From an uncultured Caulobacterales bacterium (GTDB taxonomy: Bacteria; Pseudomonadota; Alphaproteobacteria; Caulobacterales; Maricaulaceae), in assembly GCA_937929915.1 (NCBI GenBank), contig CALFUN010000037.1, positions 20,676 through 84,675 of the forward strand: DNA of 64,000 nt, read 5' to 3'. Every line of letters begins with the position of its first letter. The first letter of the stretch is position 1. Positions 4,501-12,577 of this stretch are shown here, piece by piece. Made by a program: the position numbers and the translations under genes. The notes under the pieces are model-generated. The model was not told the origin of the DNA, did no database searches, and saw only the letters and a list, made by a program, of their open reading frames with translations.

Positions 4501-4584
4501 GCGGGTGTGGCGGAATTGGTAGACGCGCGGGATTCAAAATCCCGTTCCATTGGAGTGTCGGTTCGATTCCGACCACCCGTACCA
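4501..4584 (+). tRNA. tRNA-Leu (anticodon CAA), 84 nt, CCA encoded
   Basis: Acceptor stem GCGGGTG/CACCCGT, D-loop GGAATTGGTAGAC, anticodon arm CGGGA-TTCAAAA-TCCCG, variable arm, T-loop GTTCGATTC, 3' CCA. Confidence 0.97.
4527..4584 (+). repeat. att core (left): 3' 58 bp of tRNA-Leu
   Basis: Identical to 12520-12577; first mismatches at 4526/12519 and 4585/12578. Confidence 0.95.
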
Positions 4585-4747
4585 AAGAGTTGCAGTCTTG
4601 CGTTTGTTAATGTTATCAACAACTTAGCAGGTTAAGCGCTTTTTTCAATAAGATACTAAAATTTTCATCGAAAAACTTAAGTGCGGATTAAATGCAAAAG
4701 CTAACCTAAAACAATAATCGAGGGTAATTGTTTCAGTGGTTTGATAG

Positions 4748-5263
4748 CTAATTCGCAGTCAAAGTTACTGTTTCAGTCCCACCCGTGGCAACAGATACTT
4801 TTTTCATAAGCGTACCGCCTTCATTAAACACCTTTCCAATGTCCCAAGTCACTTTAGCTATGATGTAGTAATCTCCAGATGGTAGGTCTTTATACTCAAA
4901 CTCTCCATTTGCATTGCAAACCGTCTTCTTGACGGACTTATAGAAATCTGGTTCGTCTGGATTAAACTTCCACGCGCGGCGAGGGCCAAACAGATGACCG
5001 CTTGCTTCACTCCCATAGATGAAACGCATTCGTTCTGCCGCATAGGAACTATAGGGCAAAAGCTGAACTTCATAGCCAGCACAAGTTTTCACTGCACCAC
5101 CCTTAGTTCGCAAGAACGCTGAACCTTCTAGCGTTCCAGTTCCTGCACCATCAAACCAAGCAACATCCGTTTTAGAAAATTTAGACGATATTGGCACGTC
5201 AGTTGGTGGCACTGTTGCACATCCTGTCATCATCAATGCACCCACAATCATATATGCTTTCAT
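4748..5263 (-). CDS. Hypothetical lipoprotein (probable beta-sandwich, carboxypeptidase-regulatory-like)
   Basis: Signal peptide MKAYMIVGALMMTGC with lipobox Cys; GEFEYKDLPSGDYYI motif; start at ATG 5263 after GGAG. Confidence 0.7.
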   Translation of the reverse strand: MKAYMIVGALMMTGCATVPPTDVPISSKFSKTDVAWFDGAGTGTLEGSAFLRTKGGAVKTCAGYEVQLLPYSSYAAERMRFIYGSEASGHLFGPRRAWKFNPDEPDFYKSVKKTVCNANGEFEYKDLPSGDYYIIAKVTWDIGKVFNEGGTLMKKVSVATGGTETVTLTAN

Positions 5264-5356
5264 AAAACTCTCCTTGTTAAGCAATAATAAGAAGATTCTA
5301 CTCACAATATACTTATTAAGTATACACTAAAATGATATATATTCCATTTTTCTCGC

Positions 5357-5596
5357 ATGACCAAAACGCGTGTGACTCGAAAAGGAAATATCTGCGGGGC
5401 CAATGTCAAAGCCATCCGTAAGAAGATGGGCATGGCACAGGCTGACCTAGCCGCTGCCCTCTGCGTGGAACATGGGTATAATTTTGTTCAGAGCGATATT
5501 TCAGAAATTGAGCAAAACTATAGAGGCGTAAAAGACCATGAACTTAAAGCGCTGGCTGCTGTATTAGAGACTACAGCAGACGCTTTGCTTGCTTAA
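5357..5596 (+). CDS. XRE-family helix-turn-helix transcriptional regulator
   Basis: VKAIRKKMGMAQADLA...ISEIEQNYR...LKALAAVLET pattern; 79 aa. Confidence 0.85.
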   Translation: MTKTRVTRKGNICGANVKAIRKKMGMAQADLAAALCVEHGYNFVQSDISEIEQNYRGVKDHELKALAAVLETTADALLA

Positions 5597-5799
5597 CCCT
5601 TACGAAGGTACCCACCTATTTTTCTAAGAAAGGTATATAACGACCTAGGAGTGTCTGAAACTGGTTCTGTGACAGTTTCAGAAAAAAATACTATTTCAAA
5701 GTTTCAAAGAAATTTACCCCCGTTTCGCGTGGGAAAATCTAGTTGACTTCAATGCCTCACCTACTAAACCTTGAGCTGAGTGTTATATTGGGGACTATT

Positions 5800-6855
5800 A
5801 TGGCGGCGATGAAAAAAGAACGTGATATTCTTCTTCTCAAACTCAAGGCGCAAACAAGCCCCAAAAATATACCTGACAACTCCCCAATCCTGACGTTGAA
5901 CGAATTGATGGACATTTTGGAAACCGTCTACAAATCAGGTAAACACTACGCACTATTTAGCGCTAATGGATTTATGCCAACCCCCGGTAAAATGAACTTA
6001 AAAACAATAGGTGAGGTGGCGGGCGCACCTATAACGGATAATATAGTCTTTATATCTGACTTTTGGAGGAACGAAGGTAAAACGGAGTATCGGTTGCTGA
6101 TAAAACGTGGGAATCCAGACGCCGCCAATCCATCATTTACAAATATTGAAAAAAATACAACAAGAAGCGTCGCCCCCAGTGAGGGCGAAACCAACGGACA
6201 ATCGTCACATTTGGTTGTATCCTTAGATACCAGCCACAAAAGTATCGATGGATACAGAGCTGCTTTGGAGGTGATTGTCGGAATATCTAGAAGTTTAGTT
6301 ATGCCGTACATCAACGGTCTAATCTATGAGGCAACAAAACAAGACCCACGTTTCTCTTACCAAAAGCAGGTGAAAAATGAAAAGGTAGATATGACCTATA
6401 GGCCTTCTATCGGCCACTCTTCTAGTCCGTCAGGTTCCTTAGAGGCTGATCTAAAGAAGGGATATCTGTCTTCTGTCGAATTTATAGATAATAAGGTTAC
6501 TGGTGCGACTGGCCCCGATACTGACCCTGCCATTAAGCACGTTTCAAAACGGCTGCGTTTTCATTTAAAGCCCGTCGACAACCATGAAAGGGCTCAAGAA
6601 ATCATCCGAAAACTCAACAGGAAAGCTCGTGAACAAGAATTCGACTATATTCGCGTAAGTATGAAAGACAATGAGCAAGAGAAATATGTCTCCACCCGTT
6701 TCAAGACTGAGGAGGGGGATGCATTAGATAAACTCTATAGTAGAGCTGAGACTGTCAATGGTTTCTCACAAGACCTCAATTCATGCTATGATAAAGTTCA
6801 TGGAGAATTAGCCGAAGCTATGATGTTACTTATCAACTCCCCCCAGAAGTGGTAA
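5800..6855 (+). CDS. Hypothetical soluble protein, 351 aa (cargo gene A)
   Basis: Long ORF with GGGA upstream of ATG 5800; no recognised domain; stop lies 1 nt before the next ATG. Confidence 0.8.
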   Translation: MAAMKKERDILLLKLKAQTSPKNIPDNSPILTLNELMDILETVYKSGKHYALFSANGFMPTPGKMNLKTIGEVAGAPITDNIVFISDFWRNEGKTEYRLLIKRGNPDAANPSFTNIEKNTTRSVAPSEGETNGQSSHLVVSLDTSHKSIDGYRAALEVIVGISRSLVMPYINGLIYEATKQDPRFSYQKQVKNEKVDMTYRPSIGHSSSPSGSLEADLKKGYLSSVEFIDNKVTGATGPDTDPAIKHVSKRLRFHLKPVDNHERAQEIIRKLNRKAREQEFDYIRVSMKDNEQEKYVSTRFKTEEGDALDKLYSRAETVNGFSQDLNSCYDKVHGELAEAMMLLINSPQKW

Positions 6856-6856
6856 A

Positions 6857-7474
6857 ATGCTTTCTTGGATAAGATATCTGCTGCAACCGTTGGCGTATCT
6901 TAAGATACGCTATGGAGAAGGCACTAAGTCCAAACTGTTTTTGGATGTATTTGCACCATTAATTTTGACGGTAATTTTGTATCTTCTCAGTTTTTTAATT
7001 AACAAGGATCTGCCAGAAATAACCACAGAGATTATAGACGAAATTCTAAAATTTTTGACTTTTGCATTTCCCTTTTACGTAGCTTCATTGACTGCGGTAT
7101 CGACTTTCTCAAGCAAGTCTCTTGAAAAGGTTTTTGGCTCAAAGGAAAAAGATCAAGCGACTCTAAAAAGCTGGAGCAATGATAATCAAAGATGGGAAAA
7201 AGAACCCCTAACACGAAGGAAGTATACATCTTATATGTTTGGCTACCTATCAGTAGTGACTTTAATTTTAATATTCATCTTAGTTTTCGACAAATTTTTC
7301 AAAATTTCGAACTTTCAAACATTTTTACCTTCAGAAGTAATTCCTTGGATGATAAATACCGTGAACTTTTTGTTCTGGGCCGTTATTTTGAATATTGTTT
7401 TCGTTACCCTCATGGCGTTGAAGTTCTTAATTAGTAGTGTTGCCGAAGGTCACGAGAAGGACACTACCTCTTAG
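6857..7474 (+). CDS. Hypothetical 4-TM membrane protein, 205 aa (cargo gene B)
   Basis: Four hydrophobic segments with a polar loop ending LTRRKY; coupled to gene A (TAA-A-ATG). Confidence 0.8.
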   Translation: MLSWIRYLLQPLAYLKIRYGEGTKSKLFLDVFAPLILTVILYLLSFLINKDLPEITTEIIDEILKFLTFAFPFYVASLTAVSTFSSKSLEKVFGSKEKDQATLKSWSNDNQRWEKEPLTRRKYTSYMFGYLSVVTLILIFILVFDKFFKISNFQTFLPSEVIPWMINTVNFLFWAVILNIVFVTLMALKFLISSVAEGHEKDTTS

Positions 7475-7601
7475 TCTACTACCTACCTATTCGGGGCGAT
7501 GTTATTGATTGTATAATTTTTGTTTATGGTATTTTTTTTGTAAATTTTGGAGAGGAAAGAGCCGCAACAAGTGCGACTCCAAATTTAACTGAAGCTGTCA
7601 G

Positions 7602-7856
7602 TTAGTTCCTATACATATATGCTGGATACTGACTACGGTATTGCTGCCATACTAGTTTAGCTGCAGAAAACATAGCTTCCGACCTCAAGATAAAGTGTGA
7701 ATAAAGATAGTCCTCTAATTCTTCCCAGTTTCGAGCGTCGGGAAGATTAGGGTCAACTTTTGCACTGGCTGTGAAGTCACCTTGCCTTGAGTCGGTTATC
7801 CGTCGCTTTTGGATATACTCACGAAAGTCAATTAAGGGTTTATGTGATTTACTCAT
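7602..7856 (-). CDS. YozE/SAM-like small protein
   Basis: F-x-x-Y...D...GDF...DPNLP...EEL..YL...A..VW.QY pattern of the YozE_SAM_like family; ATGA overlap with upstream gene. Confidence 0.65.
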   Translation of the reverse strand: MSKSHKPLIDFREYIQKRRITDSRQGDFTASAKVDPNLPDARNWEELEDYLYSHFILRSEAMFSAAKLVWQQYRSQYPAYMYRN

Positions 7857-8323
7857 AGATAAACTCCTTTCTCAAAAGAGAAGTTAGGAATTTTGAACCT
7901 GAGCTTTTGCTTCCACTGGGGCTGTTTGTAAGTTCGAGTTTCAATGAGTTGCTCAATCAGCGACTGGCACTGTGACTGTGACCCGACATCTTGCGTTGGG
8001 CATTCGATTTTAAGCCATTCTTGGTAAACTTCCCAACCAGGTTTTTGGTCGAGCCAAGCCATTACATTAGCGATGGGATAATAGACCTTATTCTGCCGCC
8101 AAGTTCCTCTTGGTGTAGGTTTTGGCCCCTTGTCTCGAATATCCCAATTTGCAAGCGTTTGAAGGTGAACGCCAATGGCTCTTGAAAGCTGCAATCGTGA
8201 CACAACCTGCCATGGGAACGGTTTGGTAATTCCGTATAGCTCTTCAAGTCTGTCTAAAAAGTCCTTAGGTGCTAGGATCGCTTGAACGTGAGCCACAGTA
8301 TTTTTATGTTTTCTGGTAGTCAT
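7853..8323 (-). CDS. Xis/AlpA-like winged-HTH protein (candidate excisionase)
   Basis: SRLQLSRAIGVHLQTLANW...GPKP...KVYYPIANVMAWL resembles the MerR/Xis-type wHTH; GGAG RBS. Confidence 0.6.
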   Translation of the reverse strand: MTTRKHKNTVAHVQAILAPKDFLDRLEELYGITKPFPWQVVSRLQLSRAIGVHLQTLANWDIRDKGPKPTPRGTWRQNKVYYPIANVMAWLDQKPGWEVYQEWLKIECPTQDVGSQSQCQSLIEQLIETRTYKQPQWKQKLRFKIPNFSFEKGVYL

Positions 8324-8425
8324 ATTATATCTCCATATTTGATCCAGTGCTGTTTGTTGAGTTTAGTACAGTAGTAGCAAGCGTGCCCGCCCGCGTGGTA
8401 AGTCCACACGAACGGGTGCTTGAGT

Positions 8426-9559
8426 TTACCTGTTAAACTCTTCTCTAATCGCCTCAGACTCCGCCTGAGACCATTTTTCCTGATTTCTGATAATCCATAG
8501 CGAATGCCTAACGCCCTTCACCATACGTTGTCCTAGCGAGGACTTTCCCATTTGCTTGAGCGTATCGGTAACATTCCTAGTCTCACGAGAACGCGCACTT
8601 ACATTTGGACACATAGAAAGGTGCAAATCTATTTCAGCACTGCTCACAATGTCTTTGTGAAACGGCTGCAATCCCGACTCAATCAAATCTGTGAGCGCCG
8701 CACGAATAGGCGTGAAGCTCCGATGTATAAGATTGTCCTTAGCATCCGTCATGGGCGGCGCGGCGTTGGGATTAAAACCACTCAAGTCATGCTCGTGCAT
8801 GAGGTAGTGCATGAAGGCTGGACCTTCAGCCTCACTCGCGGCAAAGAGCGCATCGTAATATTCAGACGACTGCTTGGCAGCCTCTGAATGTACAACATGC
8901 CATCGGCGGTCATCTTCACTCAAATTGATACATTTTTTGAAGTTACTAAATGCAAGGAACGCTAGCGGCGTTTTTGCCTCAAACCTTGGAATACACTTCT
9001 CATTACACATGATGGTTGCCTCGCTAATAAGGGGCTTCATCATATTCTCAGTTTCCAAGTGTTTAGCGGCCATAAGCTCTTCAATGATGATGAGTTCCTT
9101 GTTCACGAACACAGAGTTGAACTCGCTTCGAAGGTGGCTTGTCTCGGCTATGCCTACATTCTGAGAGCCAAGCATGAACTTGAATAGGCTACCAAAGAAC
9201 GATTTCCCAATGCCCTGTCCGCCTGTCAGCAACAGAACGTGCTTTAATTTCAAGCTGGGGCGCTGGAACTTGCAAGCGAGATAGTTATACCAATGCCTAC
9301 GCTGTTCAGCGTCAACAATGACGAATTCGAAGTGCTTCGCGATGGTTGACCAATCGCCTTTTACAGGAACTACATCGCTACTCTTCCAAAGGTTCAGATA
9401 AACATCTTCGCCTTGGTGAATAAATTTTGCCCTACCAGCAAGATACGTTGTGCCTCTCACCTTACAAGAATACTGACATAGGTTGAAGTCTGTGGTAGGT
9501 TTTCTGAAAGCGTGACTCATGTGTTTCACGCCAAAGCTTTTGTCTGATAGTGCGGCCAT
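8426..9559 (-). CDS. SF3 (D5/NrS-1-like, DUF5906) helicase; probably the 3' half of a primase-helicase fusion
   Basis: Walker A GGQGIGKS, Walker B LIIIEE, NEK and FSNF motifs. Confidence 0.88.
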   Translation of the reverse strand: MAALSDKSFGVKHMSHAFRKPTTDFNLCQYSCKVRGTTYLAGRAKFIHQGEDVYLNLWKSSDVVPVKGDWSTIAKHFEFVIVDAEQRRHWYNYLACKFQRPSLKLKHVLLLTGGQGIGKSFFGSLFKFMLGSQNVGIAETSHLRSEFNSVFVNKELIIIEELMAAKHLETENMMKPLISEATIMCNEKCIPRFEAKTPLAFLAFSNFKKCINLSEDDRRWHVVHSEAAKQSSEYYDALFAASEAEGPAFMHYLMHEHDLSGFNPNAAPPMTDAKDNLIHRSFTPIRAALTDLIESGLQPFHKDIVSSAEIDLHLSMCPNVSARSRETRNVTDTLKQMGKSSLGQRMVKGVRHSLWIIRNQEKWSQAESEAIREEFNR

Positions 9560-9561
9560 GA

Positions 9562-10674
9562 TTACGCCCCCACTTCAAAATATTGATTTGTGGTTAAGCA
9601 ATAGACATACTGACTGATAACTTTTGCTAATTCAGACTGAATGAAGCCTAAACCAATAGGGGAAGTTAAACTTCCTGTTTGTCTGATAGGACAAGATTTA
9701 CAGCCTGAAAAAGCCAATGTGTCCGCAATATATTTGCATGTCGTTGGCCCCGAAGACTCAGACAAAGCATGAGTTATTTTGCGTTCGGTTTCGTCAAAGT
9801 CATAATCCGAGTATCCCTCTGATATTTGGTGACAAACCGCCCTCCCATCTTCGCAACGACTGGCAATCGTCAAGGTGTGATACCAAATCGGCTCCTCCAG
9901 CGTTTCGGAGTTATCAACGCTGTCTTTAACGAATGGACAGCCCTCATAGATAGGGTCAAATTTAGCGAGACCGTCCGAAGGCTTTTCGTTCTTTTTAGCT
10001 TTGAAATTTTGACGTGGTTTTGCCGCCTTTGTCTCTGGCTTTGGTATGAACTCGCACAATTCTGCAAAACTATATGTCTCATCAGACTGTCTGACAATTT
10101 CAACGAGCTTGGGAGTATCGCCTTTATTGTTGTAAGAGCCGGGCATCCGACCAACACGCGCAAGGTCTTGGCAGCTATCGTAAATGTAGCCGAGTTTCTT
10201 ACCTTCCGACTGAACTATGCTTGTAAAACCCTTTGTCAAAGCTTCGGCATTTTGCCGACTTTCATCATCCGTTATAGAGTAGCCGCCTTCTACAATATAA
10301 TATGCGTGAATGCCGCCCCCTGTCGCAACAATGTAGTTTGGTGGTGGGAGCATAGTGCCATCAAGAAAATCAATTAGTTCTTGAGTCGTTTTAGGGTTGT
10401 TTGGTTTCTTATCATTCCGACCATCCAAGTCTAAGAATACAGCAGATAGTTCGCTAACTTCTTTATTCGTCGCTCTTTGCGATGAAGATTTTGGTGTTTT
10501 GGTCGGGTTAATACTAAAGAAAACATTCTTGCCCGTTTGGGCTGTTGCTTCTTCGTACTGGCTTTGACGCTGATTGCGCTTGTACCAAGTCGTTTCTTTA
10601 TCTGGTAACGTCCAAGTATTCGTATAACCAGTAGTCTTTCCTGTATTCAATTTGTTCAAAAATTGAAGGCTCAT
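9562..10674 (-). CDS. RepB-like AEP primase with Cys-containing C-terminal domain
   Basis: FLDLD, TGGGIHAY and RMPGSYN motifs; AGGAGG RBS upstream. Confidence 0.85.
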   Translation of the reverse strand: MSLQFLNKLNTGKTTGYTNTWTLPDKETTWYKRNQRQSQYEEATAQTGKNVFFSINPTKTPKSSSQRATNKEVSELSAVFLDLDGRNDKKPNNPKTTQELIDFLDGTMLPPPNYIVATGGGIHAYYIVEGGYSITDDESRQNAEALTKGFTSIVQSEGKKLGYIYDSCQDLARVGRMPGSYNNKGDTPKLVEIVRQSDETYSFAELCEFIPKPETKAAKPRQNFKAKKNEKPSDGLAKFDPIYEGCPFVKDSVDNSETLEEPIWYHTLTIASRCEDGRAVCHQISEGYSDYDFDETERKITHALSESSGPTTCKYIADTLAFSGCKSCPIRQTGSLTSPIGLGFIQSELAKVISQYVYCLTTNQYFEVGA

Positions 10675-11233
10675 ATTGAGTCCTCCTGCTATTGCCTAGT
10701 TATGCTCTGGCTAGAGCGCATTCATCCTTCAGGCAGTTGGTTAACCTTCCACCCAGATCACCAGTCATGGAAAGCGATGCTAGCTTTCGATTCGGTGATT
10801 AATTTCCTCAAAGCCTTGTGAAAGACTGTCAGAATTTCTTTGATTTTGTGAGTTTCTGTGAGCGTGTGTTTTTTACTTTTTCTTATGTATGGAATAAGGC
10901 CATAAGGCTTAATACCAGTAACGAGAGTCTAACCGCATACTATTTCAAATCAAGAACTTTCTGCGTTGATAAAAATTTGTGCGTATGTCACGTCATCAAG
11001 TATTAGAAACAACTTCATGCCTGATTAGTTTTGAAACAAGTTTTGGGTAGCTTTCAAGCACGTCCTCTAAGAACATTTCGACAAGAGCTATACAACTCGC
11101 AACCTCCAATGCTTTTGCTTGAGAAAACTGAAAGCCCAAGACCTCAGAAAGGTGCCCCTGTATGTTTTGAGGGCTTTCGAGTAATCCACTCTGTCATTAT
11201 AGCATCCATCTTTTCGAGGTATTAAAAGTAACC

Positions 11234-12400
11234 CTATTCTGAATTTAAGCAAGCAACAGCATCTGCTTTATGTCCTGCTGATAAATGAGCATATCGCAAT
11301 GTCATCTCATATGAGCTGTGCCCAAGAAGCTCTCGAACGGTATTCAAGTCTATCCCTGCCATAGCTAGCCTTGATGCAAAGTGATGGCGCATATCGTGCC
11401 AGCGAAAATTTGAAATATTTGCTTCTTTGACTAAGCTTGCCCAAGCACTTTTAACGTCCTTAAATGGTTTGTTGTCATTCTTATGAAAAACATACTTTTG
11501 TGACTCAATGCCAGCGCCAAAGAGATTTTTGAAAGTTTCAAGCGCTTCGGTATTTAGAGGAATGTGTCTAAACTTACGTGATTTTGCATTCTCGGCGGTA
11601 ATAGAAACTTGTTTCAATTCAAAATCCACATGCTCCCACTTTAATGAGAACAGTTCGCCTCGTCTCATGCCAGTGTTCAATGATATAAGAACCATTGGCA
11701 TCAAATGATCTTTGAAAGGATAGTAGGACAGGTTTTTAGAGCTTATTACGCTCTCTCTTTCCTTTAAACTAAGCCTTAATCGCACTTCTTCGTCTGAAGT
11801 TAAGTACCGAACCCTCAAAGATTTAGCAGTCTTAATTTTCTTCATCTTTGCGATGGGGTTTGGGGAATGTATACCCCACTCGTCGGCTTTGGATAAAGCA
11901 GCTCTAAGATATGCAAAGCATTTATTGGCGGTATGAGGTGAATTCCCGTTAGCTATCTTCCTCAAACGCCACTTATCAACTGAAAGAGGTGTGATTTCCG
12001 TGAAACGAAATTTGGAAAAATGCCCGCATTCCGCAAGTAGTCGATTTCTTGTGTCTTTCGGATTCTTATGATTAACATCTACCCATGGAAAATAATGAAG
12101 CTTTAGGAATTCCTCGAATTTTTCAATTCGCGCGGCCTCTTGCTTTGGCTTTCGTGGGTCTTTGCCCGAATGGAAGTCAGAAAAGACCTTTAGAGCTTTT
12201 GTGTGAGCGTCTTTTACAGATAGCGATGGAAATACTCCTAGCCTAACCCTCGCTCCTCGTTTGTACTGGCAATAATAGGTTTTCTTTCCAGTTGGTTGAA
12301 CTCGAACTACCAATCCGACTAATTTTGTGTCGCGTAGCTCGTATGGCGTTTCTCTAGGCTTTGCTTTTTCGATTGTGTTGTTTGTTAGCCTGACTTGCAT
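11234..12400 (-). CDS. int: P4-type tyrosine integrase with N-terminal arm-binding domain
   Basis: Catalytic residues all present: GMRRGE, AKSRK, HDMRH, LGH, RY; N-terminal LVVRVQPTGKKTY arm-binding motif. Confidence 0.95.
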   Translation of the reverse strand: MQVRLTNNTIEKAKPRETPYELRDTKLVGLVVRVQPTGKKTYYCQYKRGARVRLGVFPSLSVKDAHTKALKVFSDFHSGKDPRKPKQEAARIEKFEEFLKLHYFPWVDVNHKNPKDTRNRLLAECGHFSKFRFTEITPLSVDKWRLRKIANGNSPHTANKCFAYLRAALSKADEWGIHSPNPIAKMKKIKTAKSLRVRYLTSDEEVRLRLSLKERESVISSKNLSYYPFKDHLMPMVLISLNTGMRRGELFSLKWEHVDFELKQVSITAENAKSRKFRHIPLNTEALETFKNLFGAGIESQKYVFHKNDNKPFKDVKSAWASLVKEANISNFRWHDMRHHFASRLAMAGIDLNTVRELLGHSSYEMTLRYAHLSAGHKADAVACLNSE

Positions 12401-12519
12401 TGTCGCATCCTTAAGTGCAACGTAAGTGCAAAACTTCTAGGAACAGGTAGTCAAAATGGTCAAACGAAACACGTTTCGTCGCCAAAACAGCCTGAAAACC
12501 GTAAGTTTATTAGGACGAA

Positions 12520-12577
12520 GCGGGATTCAAAATCCCGTTCCATTGGAGTGTCGGTTCGATTCCGACCACCCGTACCA
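12520..12577 (+). repeat. att core (right): displaced 3' fragment of tRNA-Leu
   Basis: 58-bp identity with 4527-4584; lacks the acceptor 5' strand and D arm, so it is not a functional tRNA. Confidence 0.95.

Follow-up and report, generated by a model that had tools for sequence, protein, structure and literature searches.

The window analysed here, by which we mean the whole 64,000-nucleotide stretch of DNA from an uncultured Caulobacterales bacterium, carries a tightly packed pair of genes, A and B, whose positions are collected with those of their neighbours in Table 1. Both the ORF listing and the sequence confirm what the initial annotation had described, namely genes for a 351-aa and a 205-aa protein with only a single nucleotide (base 6856) between the stop of A and the ATG of B, and the two are probably co-transcribed and translationally coupled. 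The ORF listing also allows a longer, TTG-initiated reading of gene A from 5743; we take ATG 5800 as the start because seven homologues align from it (MAAMKKERD...) and a Shine-Dalgarno-like GGGG lies 6 nt upstream. On comparison with the 82%-identical homologous pair at locus L028, which gives pN/pS values of 0.10/0.87 for A and 0.18/0.86 for B, both are real genes under strong purifying selection. The pair was also described as AT-rich, which is true to a modest degree (39.9% GC, and 35.4% for B alone, where the remainder of the island has 42.8% and that of the window 47.0%), and as opposed to the replication module, which is equally true, since it runs on the plus strand and converges on the minus-strand genes at 7602-10674. 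No intrinsic terminator was detected 3' of gene B, and the window sequence was found in marine metagenome DNA runs only.

Table 1. Features of the A-B locus and of the element that carries it, in window coordinates
Feature	Position	Strand	Remarks
attL	4527-4584	+	3' 58 nt of tRNA-Leu(CAA), gene 4501-4584; tRNA called by ARAGORN and Rfam
HTH_3 (Cro/CI-type) regulator	5357-5596	+	Pfam HTH_3 9.6e-07; element backbone
Inverted repeat TCTGAAACTG-N9-CAGTTTCAGA	5654-5682		Perfect, 10 nt; operator or boundary role possible
Promoter-like element TTGACT-N15-TAAACC	5743-5769	+	About 30 nt 5' of GGGG and ATG 5800
Gene A	5800-6855	+	ATG 5800, TAA 6853-6855; 351 aa, predicted soluble; PDC-M53A family
Gene B	6857-7474	+	ATG 6857; 205 aa, predicted inner-membrane, 4 TM; PDC-M53B family
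Backbone module	7602-10674	-	PHROG DNA primase and primase/polymerase families; converges on the pair
84-aa protein	7602-7856	-	Backbone module
156-aa DNA-binding-like protein	7853-8323	-	Backbone module
DUF5906/D5-type helicase	8426-9559	-	Pfam DUF5906 4.9e-15
Prim-pol	9562-10674	-	Backbone module
Tyrosine integrase	11234-12400	-	Pfam Phage_integrase 2.5e-33, Arm-DNA-bind_3 8e-14
attR	12520-12577	+	Second copy of the perfect 58-nt direct repeat

Upstream of the pair, it is important to separate what belongs to the genes from what belongs to their carrier. The promoter-like element is kept, as TTGAC(T/A)-N15-TAAAC(C/T), in the window, at L028 and at L003 (a pair of 65% identity), where the upstream genes differ, and nothing else upstream moves with the cassette; it went uncalled in a generic sigma-70 scan, and its promoter activity is putative. 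The inverted repeat folds into a hairpin of -14.8 kcal/mol (z -2.84) and is accompanied by TTTCAAAG repeats, so that the operator-like upstream region noted in the initial annotation does exist, but both features are part of the element backbone and not of the cassette. Both are kept in sister elements without the pair, the inverted repeat recurring in L040 and L041 at another place and with 81-88% identity, and both are missing 5' of homologous pairs at other loci. We accordingly rejected the inverted repeat as an operator of the cassette. The HTH_3 gene, whose homologues occur in sister elements without the pair and are absent beside homologous pairs elsewhere, was likewise rejected as a third component, because it is not conserved with A and B.

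The carrier is an 8-kb element (approximately 4585-12577) with a perfect 58-bp repeat, derived from the 3' end of tRNA-Leu, at its two boundaries, and the A-B cassette is a swappable cargo of this tRNA-Leu-integrated primase/helicase element. The backbone module shares 87% nucleotide identity with L040 and L041 and 71% with L042, a sister element that holds in the same slot an EcoRI-like methylase and a GmrSD_N/HNH restriction enzyme, while in other sister elements the slot is filled by genes without an assigned function; a viral-contig scan for sister elements found nothing. These closely related small elements differ only in the content of the cargo slot, and thus amount to a natural comparison. 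The 'satellite cargo slot' of the initial annotation is a variable slot in an integrative element, as proposed; satellite status is unproven, with no packaging, capsid-remodelling or helper-interference gene recognised in the element by Pfam or PHROG. The closest likeness is to the PICMI and P4-like hotspots (PMC10803314), which are similarly small, combine an integrase with a DUF5906-type primase/helicase and have a variable slot flanked by the replication module on one side and the distal att site on the other. Of the defining PICMI features, the element has the integrase and a DUF5906/DUF3987 primase (2.5e-33 and 4.9e-15), and its 156-aa and 84-aa proteins gave no Pfam match to the AlpA regulator (PF05930/PF12728) and one weak PHROG excisionase/regulator match (2.8e-4). 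It also differs in its site, PICMI integrating next to fis by definition (PMC10803314) and this element at tRNA-Leu, without Fis, and it has neither a packaging gene nor a known helper phage.

What, then, can be said of the two proteins themselves? Protein A lacks any stretch of 19 residues with the hydrophobicity that a transmembrane segment requires, and the initial annotation was right that it has no recognisable domain: Pfam and NCBIfam gave no match, and a Pfam scan of 108 relatives returned one chance-level match and nothing else. The family is nevertheless large, with 689 cluster representatives at E<=1e-3, and well marked by conserved polar residues (R8, R122, E130, H137, E157 and D240), of which H137 is present in 108/108 and E157 in 106/108 of the sampled relatives; the most variable part is the N-terminal stretch of about 80 residues, and in many relatives the match begins only at about residue 75. 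With this invariant R/E/H/E/D set, A could be an enzyme and effector and not a sensor. Protein B has the four TM helices and the basic LTRRKY loop that had been described for it, with hydropathy peaks at approximately 27-49, 60-84, 123-145 and 164-190 and a 38-aa loop that contains ten K/R and ends in LTRRK-Y. Charge counts and the positive-inside rule predict an N-in/C-in topology, placing both the amphipathic, basic N-terminus and the basic loop in the cytoplasm. Across 27 distinct pairs, B keeps as invariant residues FY-A-L-A in TM2, RR where the loop meets TM3 and GY within TM3, and its helices conserve residues that are polar or small (S/T, G, N, P). Neither Pfam nor NCBIfam matches B, and the PHROG matches of both proteins are all of 'unknown function'. 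The structural comparison that the initial annotation had proposed was run with Foldseek, and matched no solved structure: AF2 models from shallow alignments are mediocre (pLDDT 65-67; the B model is helical, at pLDDT 65) and found nothing in the PDB at E<=1e-3 by Foldseek, PDB sequence searches with shallow and deep profiles found nothing either, and the structure matches in BFVD are uncharacterised phage proteins only.

It is with the PADLOC models, also suggested by the initial annotation, that a name emerges. Protein A matches PDLC04696 (PDC-M53A) at 4.4e-29, residues 81-346 aligning with profile positions 54-319 of 320, and is matched by four further PDC-M53A models, while B matches PDLC04699 (PDC-M53B) at 3.9e-20, residues 6-193 on positions 4-182 of 188. 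These are nearly full-length matches to both proteins, and the genes are adjacent, on the same strand and in the A-then-B order of PDC-M53. Since PDC-M53A also matches 108/108 of the sampled A relatives, and the partner genes in other loci match PDC-M53B, we regard membership of PDC-M53 as virtually certain, the window pair being a divergent member (4e-29/4e-20, against up to 1e-94 in others). The system is therefore not undescribed, as had been supposed, and can be matched to a named one, even if the name is that of a candidate family. PDC-M53 is a two-gene phage defence candidate predicted by guilt-by-embedding (Payne et al. 2024, bioRxiv 10.1101/2024.01.29.577857), PDC systems being curated candidates recognised within BREX, DISARM or type I RM loci, and it is listed among 145 untested candidates; the window pair differs in being carried by a small tRNA-Leu integrative element. 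A literature search found no published functional test of PDC-M53, and one other paper just lists it. Other PDC candidates have failed on testing (PDC-M63) or have had a success rate of about 50%. The pair is thus a catalogued candidate and not a new discovery, and a good target for experiments.

How faithfully the two genes travel together is best seen from B. Scanning genomes with close relatives of A gave no matches, and the deep alignment of A was too divergent to supply a scanning pattern; when B by itself served as the query, 21 genomes were recovered, from Gamma- and Alphaproteobacteria and cyanobacteria. Every one of the 21 carries A on the strand of B and just 5' of it; the spacing ranges from -80 to +21 nt, some relatives having ATGA overlaps at the junction, and B was present in every A-based context examined. 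The identities of A and B co-vary across 27 distinct pairs (Mantel r=0.887, a value reached by 0/2000 permutations), and no third gene is conserved next to the pairs. The cassette hence moves as a self-contained unit in which A and then B are strictly co-inherited, and this co-occurrence of homologues, on which the initial annotation had staked its reading, is joined by the expected co-localisation with defence genes. A Marinobacter pair has a type I RM system (R, S, M, M) on one side and on the other an MkoA-like helicase, a Paracoccus pair adjoins a type I RM system (R-M-S), and other loci contain matches to PsyrT, RmrA, DpdF, GajB, BrxH and DRT along with integrases and prophage genes. Salmonella phage F1055 and an E. 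coli prophage carry their pair between the Q antiterminator and the holin, whereas the one at L003 stands between housekeeping genes with no defence or mobile-element neighbour visible.

Because of these PDC-M53 matches, the co-inheritance, the RM, defence and moron-slot surroundings and the RM cassette in the same slot of L042, we think it rather likely that the pair defends against phage, and the reading that we prefer, of a PDC-M53 member most likely serving phage exclusion, we would put at a probability of roughly 0.55. As to the two-gene defence system first proposed, the candidate cassette, its soluble and membrane partners and the cargo hotspot are all there, while defence itself is what we infer from them. 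The nearest known analogue appears to be lambda RexAB, in which a soluble protein is likewise encoded first and a four-TM inner-membrane protein second, in one operon, and which is also found on a mobile element near a Cro/CI-type regulator. A and B are larger than their counterparts (351 aa against 279 aa for RexA; 205 aa, with the 38-aa cytoplasmic loop, against 144 aa for RexB), and homology is rejected at profile level, at hhalign probabilities of 1.3% or less. For A and RexA the values were 0.5% with the 108-sequence A profile and 0.2% against a 4-sequence RexA profile, and RexA was found by neither PDB sequence search nor Foldseek of A, although with a moderate AF2 model and a shallow RexA profile a very remote fold relationship would escape such comparisons. 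For B and RexB the probability was 0.1-1.3%, and the motif TRR-x6-[YF]GY, in which the two resemble each other locally where the loop meets TM3, is without statistical support. A validated relative of this design exists in RexABpp of Pseudomonas putida prophage P1 (PP_5643/PP_5644), where both genes are needed and the activated membrane protein damages the membrane (PMC12894663). That our pair is identical with this system seems unlikely, since PDC-M53A does not show the link to RexA that HHpred gives for PP_5643 at 98% (PMC12894663); the termini of PP_5643/5644, read from primers and compared without the full sequences, matched no family member.

By this logic, and tentatively, A would be the sensor and B the effector. 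The soluble A might detect an infection cue in the cytoplasm and then act on the cytoplasmic face of B, where the conserved basic N-terminus and RR loop are predicted to be within its reach; B would oligomerise or open in the inner membrane and collapse its integrity or potential, and phage growth would stop by abortive-infection exclusion, as in lambda RexAB. As no homology to RexA/RexB, Kiwa or any solved structure was detected, the mechanism is drawn from architecture.

The direction of signalling could also be reversed, and Kiwa, the analogue named in the initial annotation, shows that a four-TM sensor with a soluble effector exists. Under such a scheme, which we consider unlikely, B would sense attachment, DNA entry or envelope perturbation, and A would be an effector enzyme or nucleic-acid binder activated or released by B. 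The polar set of A is typical of an active or ligand site and, together with its variable N-terminus, would suit this, and Kiwa too combines a four-TM protein with a soluble one of about 300-350 aa. Its gene order is opposite, however, with membrane KwaA first and KwaB (DUF4868) after it; no PADLOC KwaA/KwaB model matched A or B at E<=1, and DUF4868, DUF4747 and DUF6731, which had been suggested for checking, matched neither A, B nor anything in the Pfam scan of 108 relatives. Kiwa identity is rejected on the Kwa models and the reversed order, and even as an analogue Kiwa is weaker than lambda RexAB, which has the same gene order and a four-TM second protein. Nor did the Pfam, PDB and Foldseek searches recognise a nuclease, NADase or other effector fold in A, and the conserved polar and small residues in the helices of B suit a pore as well as a sensor.

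Two further explanations dispense with immunity to a greater or lesser degree, and to both we give little credence. The pair might be an addiction or stabilisation module, in which A neutralises a toxic membrane protein B, or the roles are exchanged, and which stabilises its carrier elements and islands, defence being absent or incidental. Tight coupling, through 1-nt spacing or ATGA overlaps, is what one would expect of it, as are a small and hydrophobic second gene and carriage on integrative elements, prophages and islands; yet for a type I/II TA pair the two proteins are large, neither matches a TA family in PADLOC, Pfam or NCBIfam, and the repeated siting beside RM systems and in defence slots speaks against it. 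It is in any case only a partial rival, as the same module may work both as TA and by abortive infection. Slightly less probable still is a role in the life cycle of a phage or satellite, through lysis timing, DNA-injection exclusion at the envelope or helper interference on behalf of the element. The lambdoid prophage pair would be transcribed with the late/lysis operon, PHROG families match both proteins, the BFVD matches are phage proteins, and the window pair lives in a satellite-like element. Against this, the cassette has its own conserved promoter-like element and is also found, away from any phage genes, by chromosomal type I RM systems and between housekeeping genes. The interval between Q and holin is moreover a classic moron slot, the contents of which usually serve the lysogen.

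We return, then, to phage exclusion by a PDC-M53 member. In its boldest form, which we think improbable, PDC-M53 would be a working immune system with parts unrelated to any characterised one, A founding a new fold, enzyme or sensor, around its invariant Arg/Glu/His/Glu/Asp set, and B coupling A to the envelope, where infection would be perceived directly or to which it would be signalled, independently of Rex, Kiwa and Zorya. If the pair protects, the database entry PDC-M53 would become a validated system, one built of two domain-less proteins that extends over about 690 sequence clusters in Proteobacteria, cyanobacteria and their phages. It would be an independent, non-homologous case of the design that joins a soluble partner to a four-TM effector, beside lambda RexAB and RexABpp. 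Sister elements that differ only in whether their slot holds this pair, an RM cassette or other genes also favour such slots as places in which to look for defence genes in marine bacteria.

PADLOC places genes A and B, which the initial annotation had put forward as a candidate undescribed anti-phage system, in the two-gene phage defence candidate family PDC-M53. A matches PDC-M53A nearly full length (best model, 4.4e-29), B matches PDC-M53B (3.9e-20), and neither matches any other PADLOC defence model at E<=1. The PDC set comprises 145 candidates, single-gene (S) and multi-gene (M), chosen because examples sit inside BREX, DISARM or type I RM loci; they entered PADLOC as candidates, untested (bioRxiv 10.1101/2024.01.29.577857). 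Beyond that source we found just a listing in one Salmonella survey, PDC-M53 was absent from the papers we found that assayed other PDC candidates, and for one E. coli genome RefSeq lists the two proteins as 'hypothetical'. Judged by its PADLOC matches, the literature and its RefSeq status, the pair belongs to a candidate family that has been catalogued but not characterised, and so 'undescribed' was wrong; the broader description, a two-gene, membrane-linked candidate defence cassette in a cargo hotspot, was right in kind, given the PDC-M53 match and the variable slot described below.

The observation of a soluble protein coupled to a four-TM protein is confirmed by the gene calls, by the single base between the A stop and the B ATG and by four hydrophobic segments in B (about 27-49, 60-84, 123-145 and 164-190); no hydrophobic segment was found in A, and neither protein has a Pfam or NCBIfam match. 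We take the ATG at 5800, rather than the upstream TTG at 5743, as the A start because it is the point from which seven homologues align and is preceded, 6 nt upstream, by a GGGG motif. In B, the positive-inside rule predicts that the basic, amphipathic N-terminus (5 K/R), the 38-residue loop (10 K/R, with LTRRK at its end) and the C-terminus are all cytoplasmic. Both are, on sequence grounds, real genes under purifying selection (pN/pS relative to the 82%-identical homologue: A, 0.10/0.87; B, 0.18/0.86). The pair is indeed somewhat AT-rich: its GC content is 39.9%, that of the remaining island 42.8% and that of the flanks 47.0%.

Coordinates of the gene pair, its host element and the corresponding cargo of sister elements (window coordinates unless a sister element is named)
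Feature	Coordinates	Strand	Remarks
Direct repeat copy 1	4527-4584		tRNA-Leu(CAA) 3' end
Lipoprotein-like gene	4748-5305	-	185-aa ORF; inside island, adjoins attL
HTH_3 regulator	5357-5596		element gene
Gene A	ATG 5800 to TAA 6853-6855	+	351 aa
Gene B	ATG 6857 to 7474	+	205 aa
Small protein	7602-7856		element gene
Small protein	7853-8323		element gene
DUF5906 helicase	8426-9559		element gene
Prim-pol	9562-10674		element gene
Tyrosine integrase	11234-12400		element gene
Direct repeat copy 2	12520-12577		tRNA-Leu(CAA) 3' end
Methylase + restriction enzyme	L042 3663-5335		position of pair in window
Apparently secreted ORF, 274 or 311 aa	L040 7235-8059; L041 10374-11309		adjoins HTH gene, replaces pair

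The host element, of 8 kb, is flanked by a perfect 58-nt direct repeat identical to the tRNA-Leu(CAA) 3' end. Its overall layout is like that of small satellites such as PICMIs, in which the interval from the primase to the distal att is a defence hotspot (PMC10803314); unlike PICMIs, it inserts at a tRNA rather than at fis and is without an AlpA Pfam match, which is why we term it satellite-like and not a satellite. Nothing in the element was recognisable as a packaging or capsid gene. The lipoprotein-like ORF has a lipobox-like MMTGC after an internal Met, matches PHROG phrog_14789 (unknown function) at 4e-40 and has no PADLOC match; it is possibly the second cargo gene of the element, perhaps one for a surface-exclusion lipoprotein.

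Three sister elements were reached via the helicase. L040 and L041 align with window 10982-7850 at 87% nucleotide identity, and L042 with 10560-7560 at 71%, the match extending 42 nt past the 84-aa gene. In the slot, and in the same convergent orientation as in the window, L042 carries an EcoRI-like adenine methylase, truncated where the contig stops, and then a GmrSD_N/HNH restriction enzyme (PADLOC REase_II, 4e-80), which directly supports the positional argument for the cargo slot. L040 and L041 have the HTH gene and neither the 84-aa gene nor the pair; their cargo ORFs have no Pfam or PADLOC match, and that of L040 has a signal-peptide-like N-terminus. To judge from these different contents, the slot is variable and able to hold a bona fide defence cassette. 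A 47-nt segment at window 5652-5698 contains a perfect inverted repeat, TCTGAAACTG-N9-CAGTTTCAGA (hairpin z -2.84), and is 81-88% conserved in L040 8062-8108 and L041 11311-11358, where it comes after the unknown cargo ORF, close to att; in the window it is instead flanked by the HTH gene and the pair. Its candidate roles are operator, boundary or recombination site.

Co-occurrence of homologues is borne out. A search with B only (TM2 motif, one genome per species) found 21 loci in Gammaproteobacteria (Marinobacter, Pantoea, Serratia, Erwinia, Cedecea, Xenorhabdus, Rhodanobacter, Marinobacterium and Gynuella), Alphaproteobacteria (Paracoccus, Ponticoccus and Hyphomicrobiales) and cyanobacteria, and an A homologue lies directly upstream on the same strand in all 21, with gaps of -80 to +21 nt (contig ends cut two loci). 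Likewise, all contexts identified from A contain B; they comprise Salmonella phage F1055, an E. coli prophage and relatives from metagenomes with identities of 82%, 65%, 54%, 41% and 22%. Over 27 distinct pairs, the pairwise identities of A track those of B (r=0.887; 0/2000 permutations as high), and no third gene recurs within 2 kb across unrelated contexts. About 55 nt upstream of the A ATG lies a promoter-like TTGAC(T/A)-N15-TAAAC(C/T); it is retained by the cassettes whose proteins are 82% and 65% identical, even though their upstream genes differ. We rejected the HTH gene and the inverted repeat of 10 nt (5654-5682) as cassette parts, since neither is conserved with the pair and both turn up in sister elements without it.

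A profile of eight close A relatives reaches 689 cluster representatives (clusters at 50% identity) at E<=1e-3, with 50 at E<=1e-30. All 108 sampled A-family members match PDC-M53A and none has a credible Pfam domain. Conserved polar positions are R8, D/N105, R122, E130, S135, H137 (108/108), E157 (106/108), and D240, the first ~80 residues being the most variable part. Across the 27 distinct pairs, B keeps P34, the TM2 residues F73, Y74, L78 and A80, R121, G129 (TM3), and T184 and L191 (TM4) invariant, with R120 and Y130 (TM3) each in 26.

Co-localisation with defence genes was also found. In Marinobacter the cassette has a type I RM system (R, S and two M genes) on one side and an MkoA-like helicase/nuclease on the other, and in Paracoccus it adjoins a type I RM system, R-M-S. 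At 14 other loci, the 117 proteins encoded nearby include matches to PsyrT, RmrA, DpdF, GajB, BrxH, DRT and two PDC-S candidates, as well as four integrases, MobA and phage genes of lambdoid and Mu-like type. One 65%-identical copy, on a 5-kb contig that carries neither mobile nor defence genes, is flanked by ispG and a gene for an acyl-CoA dehydrogenase. In phage F1055 and E. coli E7476 the cassette lies between a Q-type antiterminator and a holin, and it occurs in 1 of 5,426 complete E. coli genomes.

The initial ~81 nt of the gene annotated as F1055_0051 (L001 4680-4760 / L006 12001-12062) are 80-92% identical in 928 other E. coli genomes, the remainder of the pair matches just one, and RefSeq places the start of the E. 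coli gene 62 nt further on. This stretch resembles conserved backbone of the prophage, downstream of the antiterminator, and would mark a widely shared insertion point with rare cargo. An F1055-type A protein is also encoded, with no gene listed, at OX345605.1 427-1176 and OX345170.1 22427-23176, Salmonella enterica sequences of 21.5 and 43.5 kb filed as non-mobilizable plasmids, which may be phage-plasmids or prophage contigs.

What, then, might the cassette do? We put the probability that it is anti-phage at all at about 0.6. An addiction module or a phage life-cycle role is less likely, because the cassette is found beside chromosomal RM systems and outside phages. Within the anti-phage reading, we lean tentatively, and at well under even odds, towards Rex-type abortive infection, in which soluble A would be the infection sensor and four-TM B the permeabilising component. 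The analogy is favoured because the layout, a soluble protein and then a 4-TM protein, probably translationally coupled, with conserved basic surfaces predicted to face the cytoplasm, is that of lambda RexA/RexB and of the validated RexABpp of a Pseudomonas putida prophage, where both genes are needed, the soluble protein binds DNA, and its overproduction causes membrane damage dependent on the 4-TM partner (PMC12894663). The main rival is a Kiwa-like direction, B sensing at the envelope and A acting, for which the invariant Arg/Glu/His/Glu/Asp set in A speaks.

The Rex-type reading is one of analogy, as profile comparison found no homology to RexA/RexB: the 108-sequence A profile gave probabilities of 0.5% against lambda RexA and 0.2% against a four-sequence RexA profile, and B profiles gave 0.1-1.3% against RexB. 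Foldseek with the available models matched no solved structure, RexA and Kiwa included; the models were just moderately confident, so a remote fold relationship may exist. PDC-M53 and PP_5643/5644 (RexABpp) are probably different families, because HHpred links PP_5643 to RexA at 98% (PMC12894663) and PDC-M53A has no comparable link. The PP_5643/5644 termini, as given by published primers, match none of the family members compared. B residues 118-135 and lambda RexB residues 69-85 are locally alike at the cytoplasmic loop/TM3 border (TRR-x6-FGYLSVV and TRR-x6-YGYMTSVV); RR is not conserved among RexB relatives, and profile comparison (probability <=1.3%) does not support homology.

New here are the findings that A and B, in that order, are strictly co-inherited across phyla and have diverged together, the promoter-like element that the cassette carries, the predicted B topology with conserved residues in both proteins, the RM cassette in place of PDC-M53 in a sister element, and the explicit negative tests against Rex and Kiwa. 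The pair is, in short, not a surprise; it is a target with good support, on which a straightforward experiment could be run.
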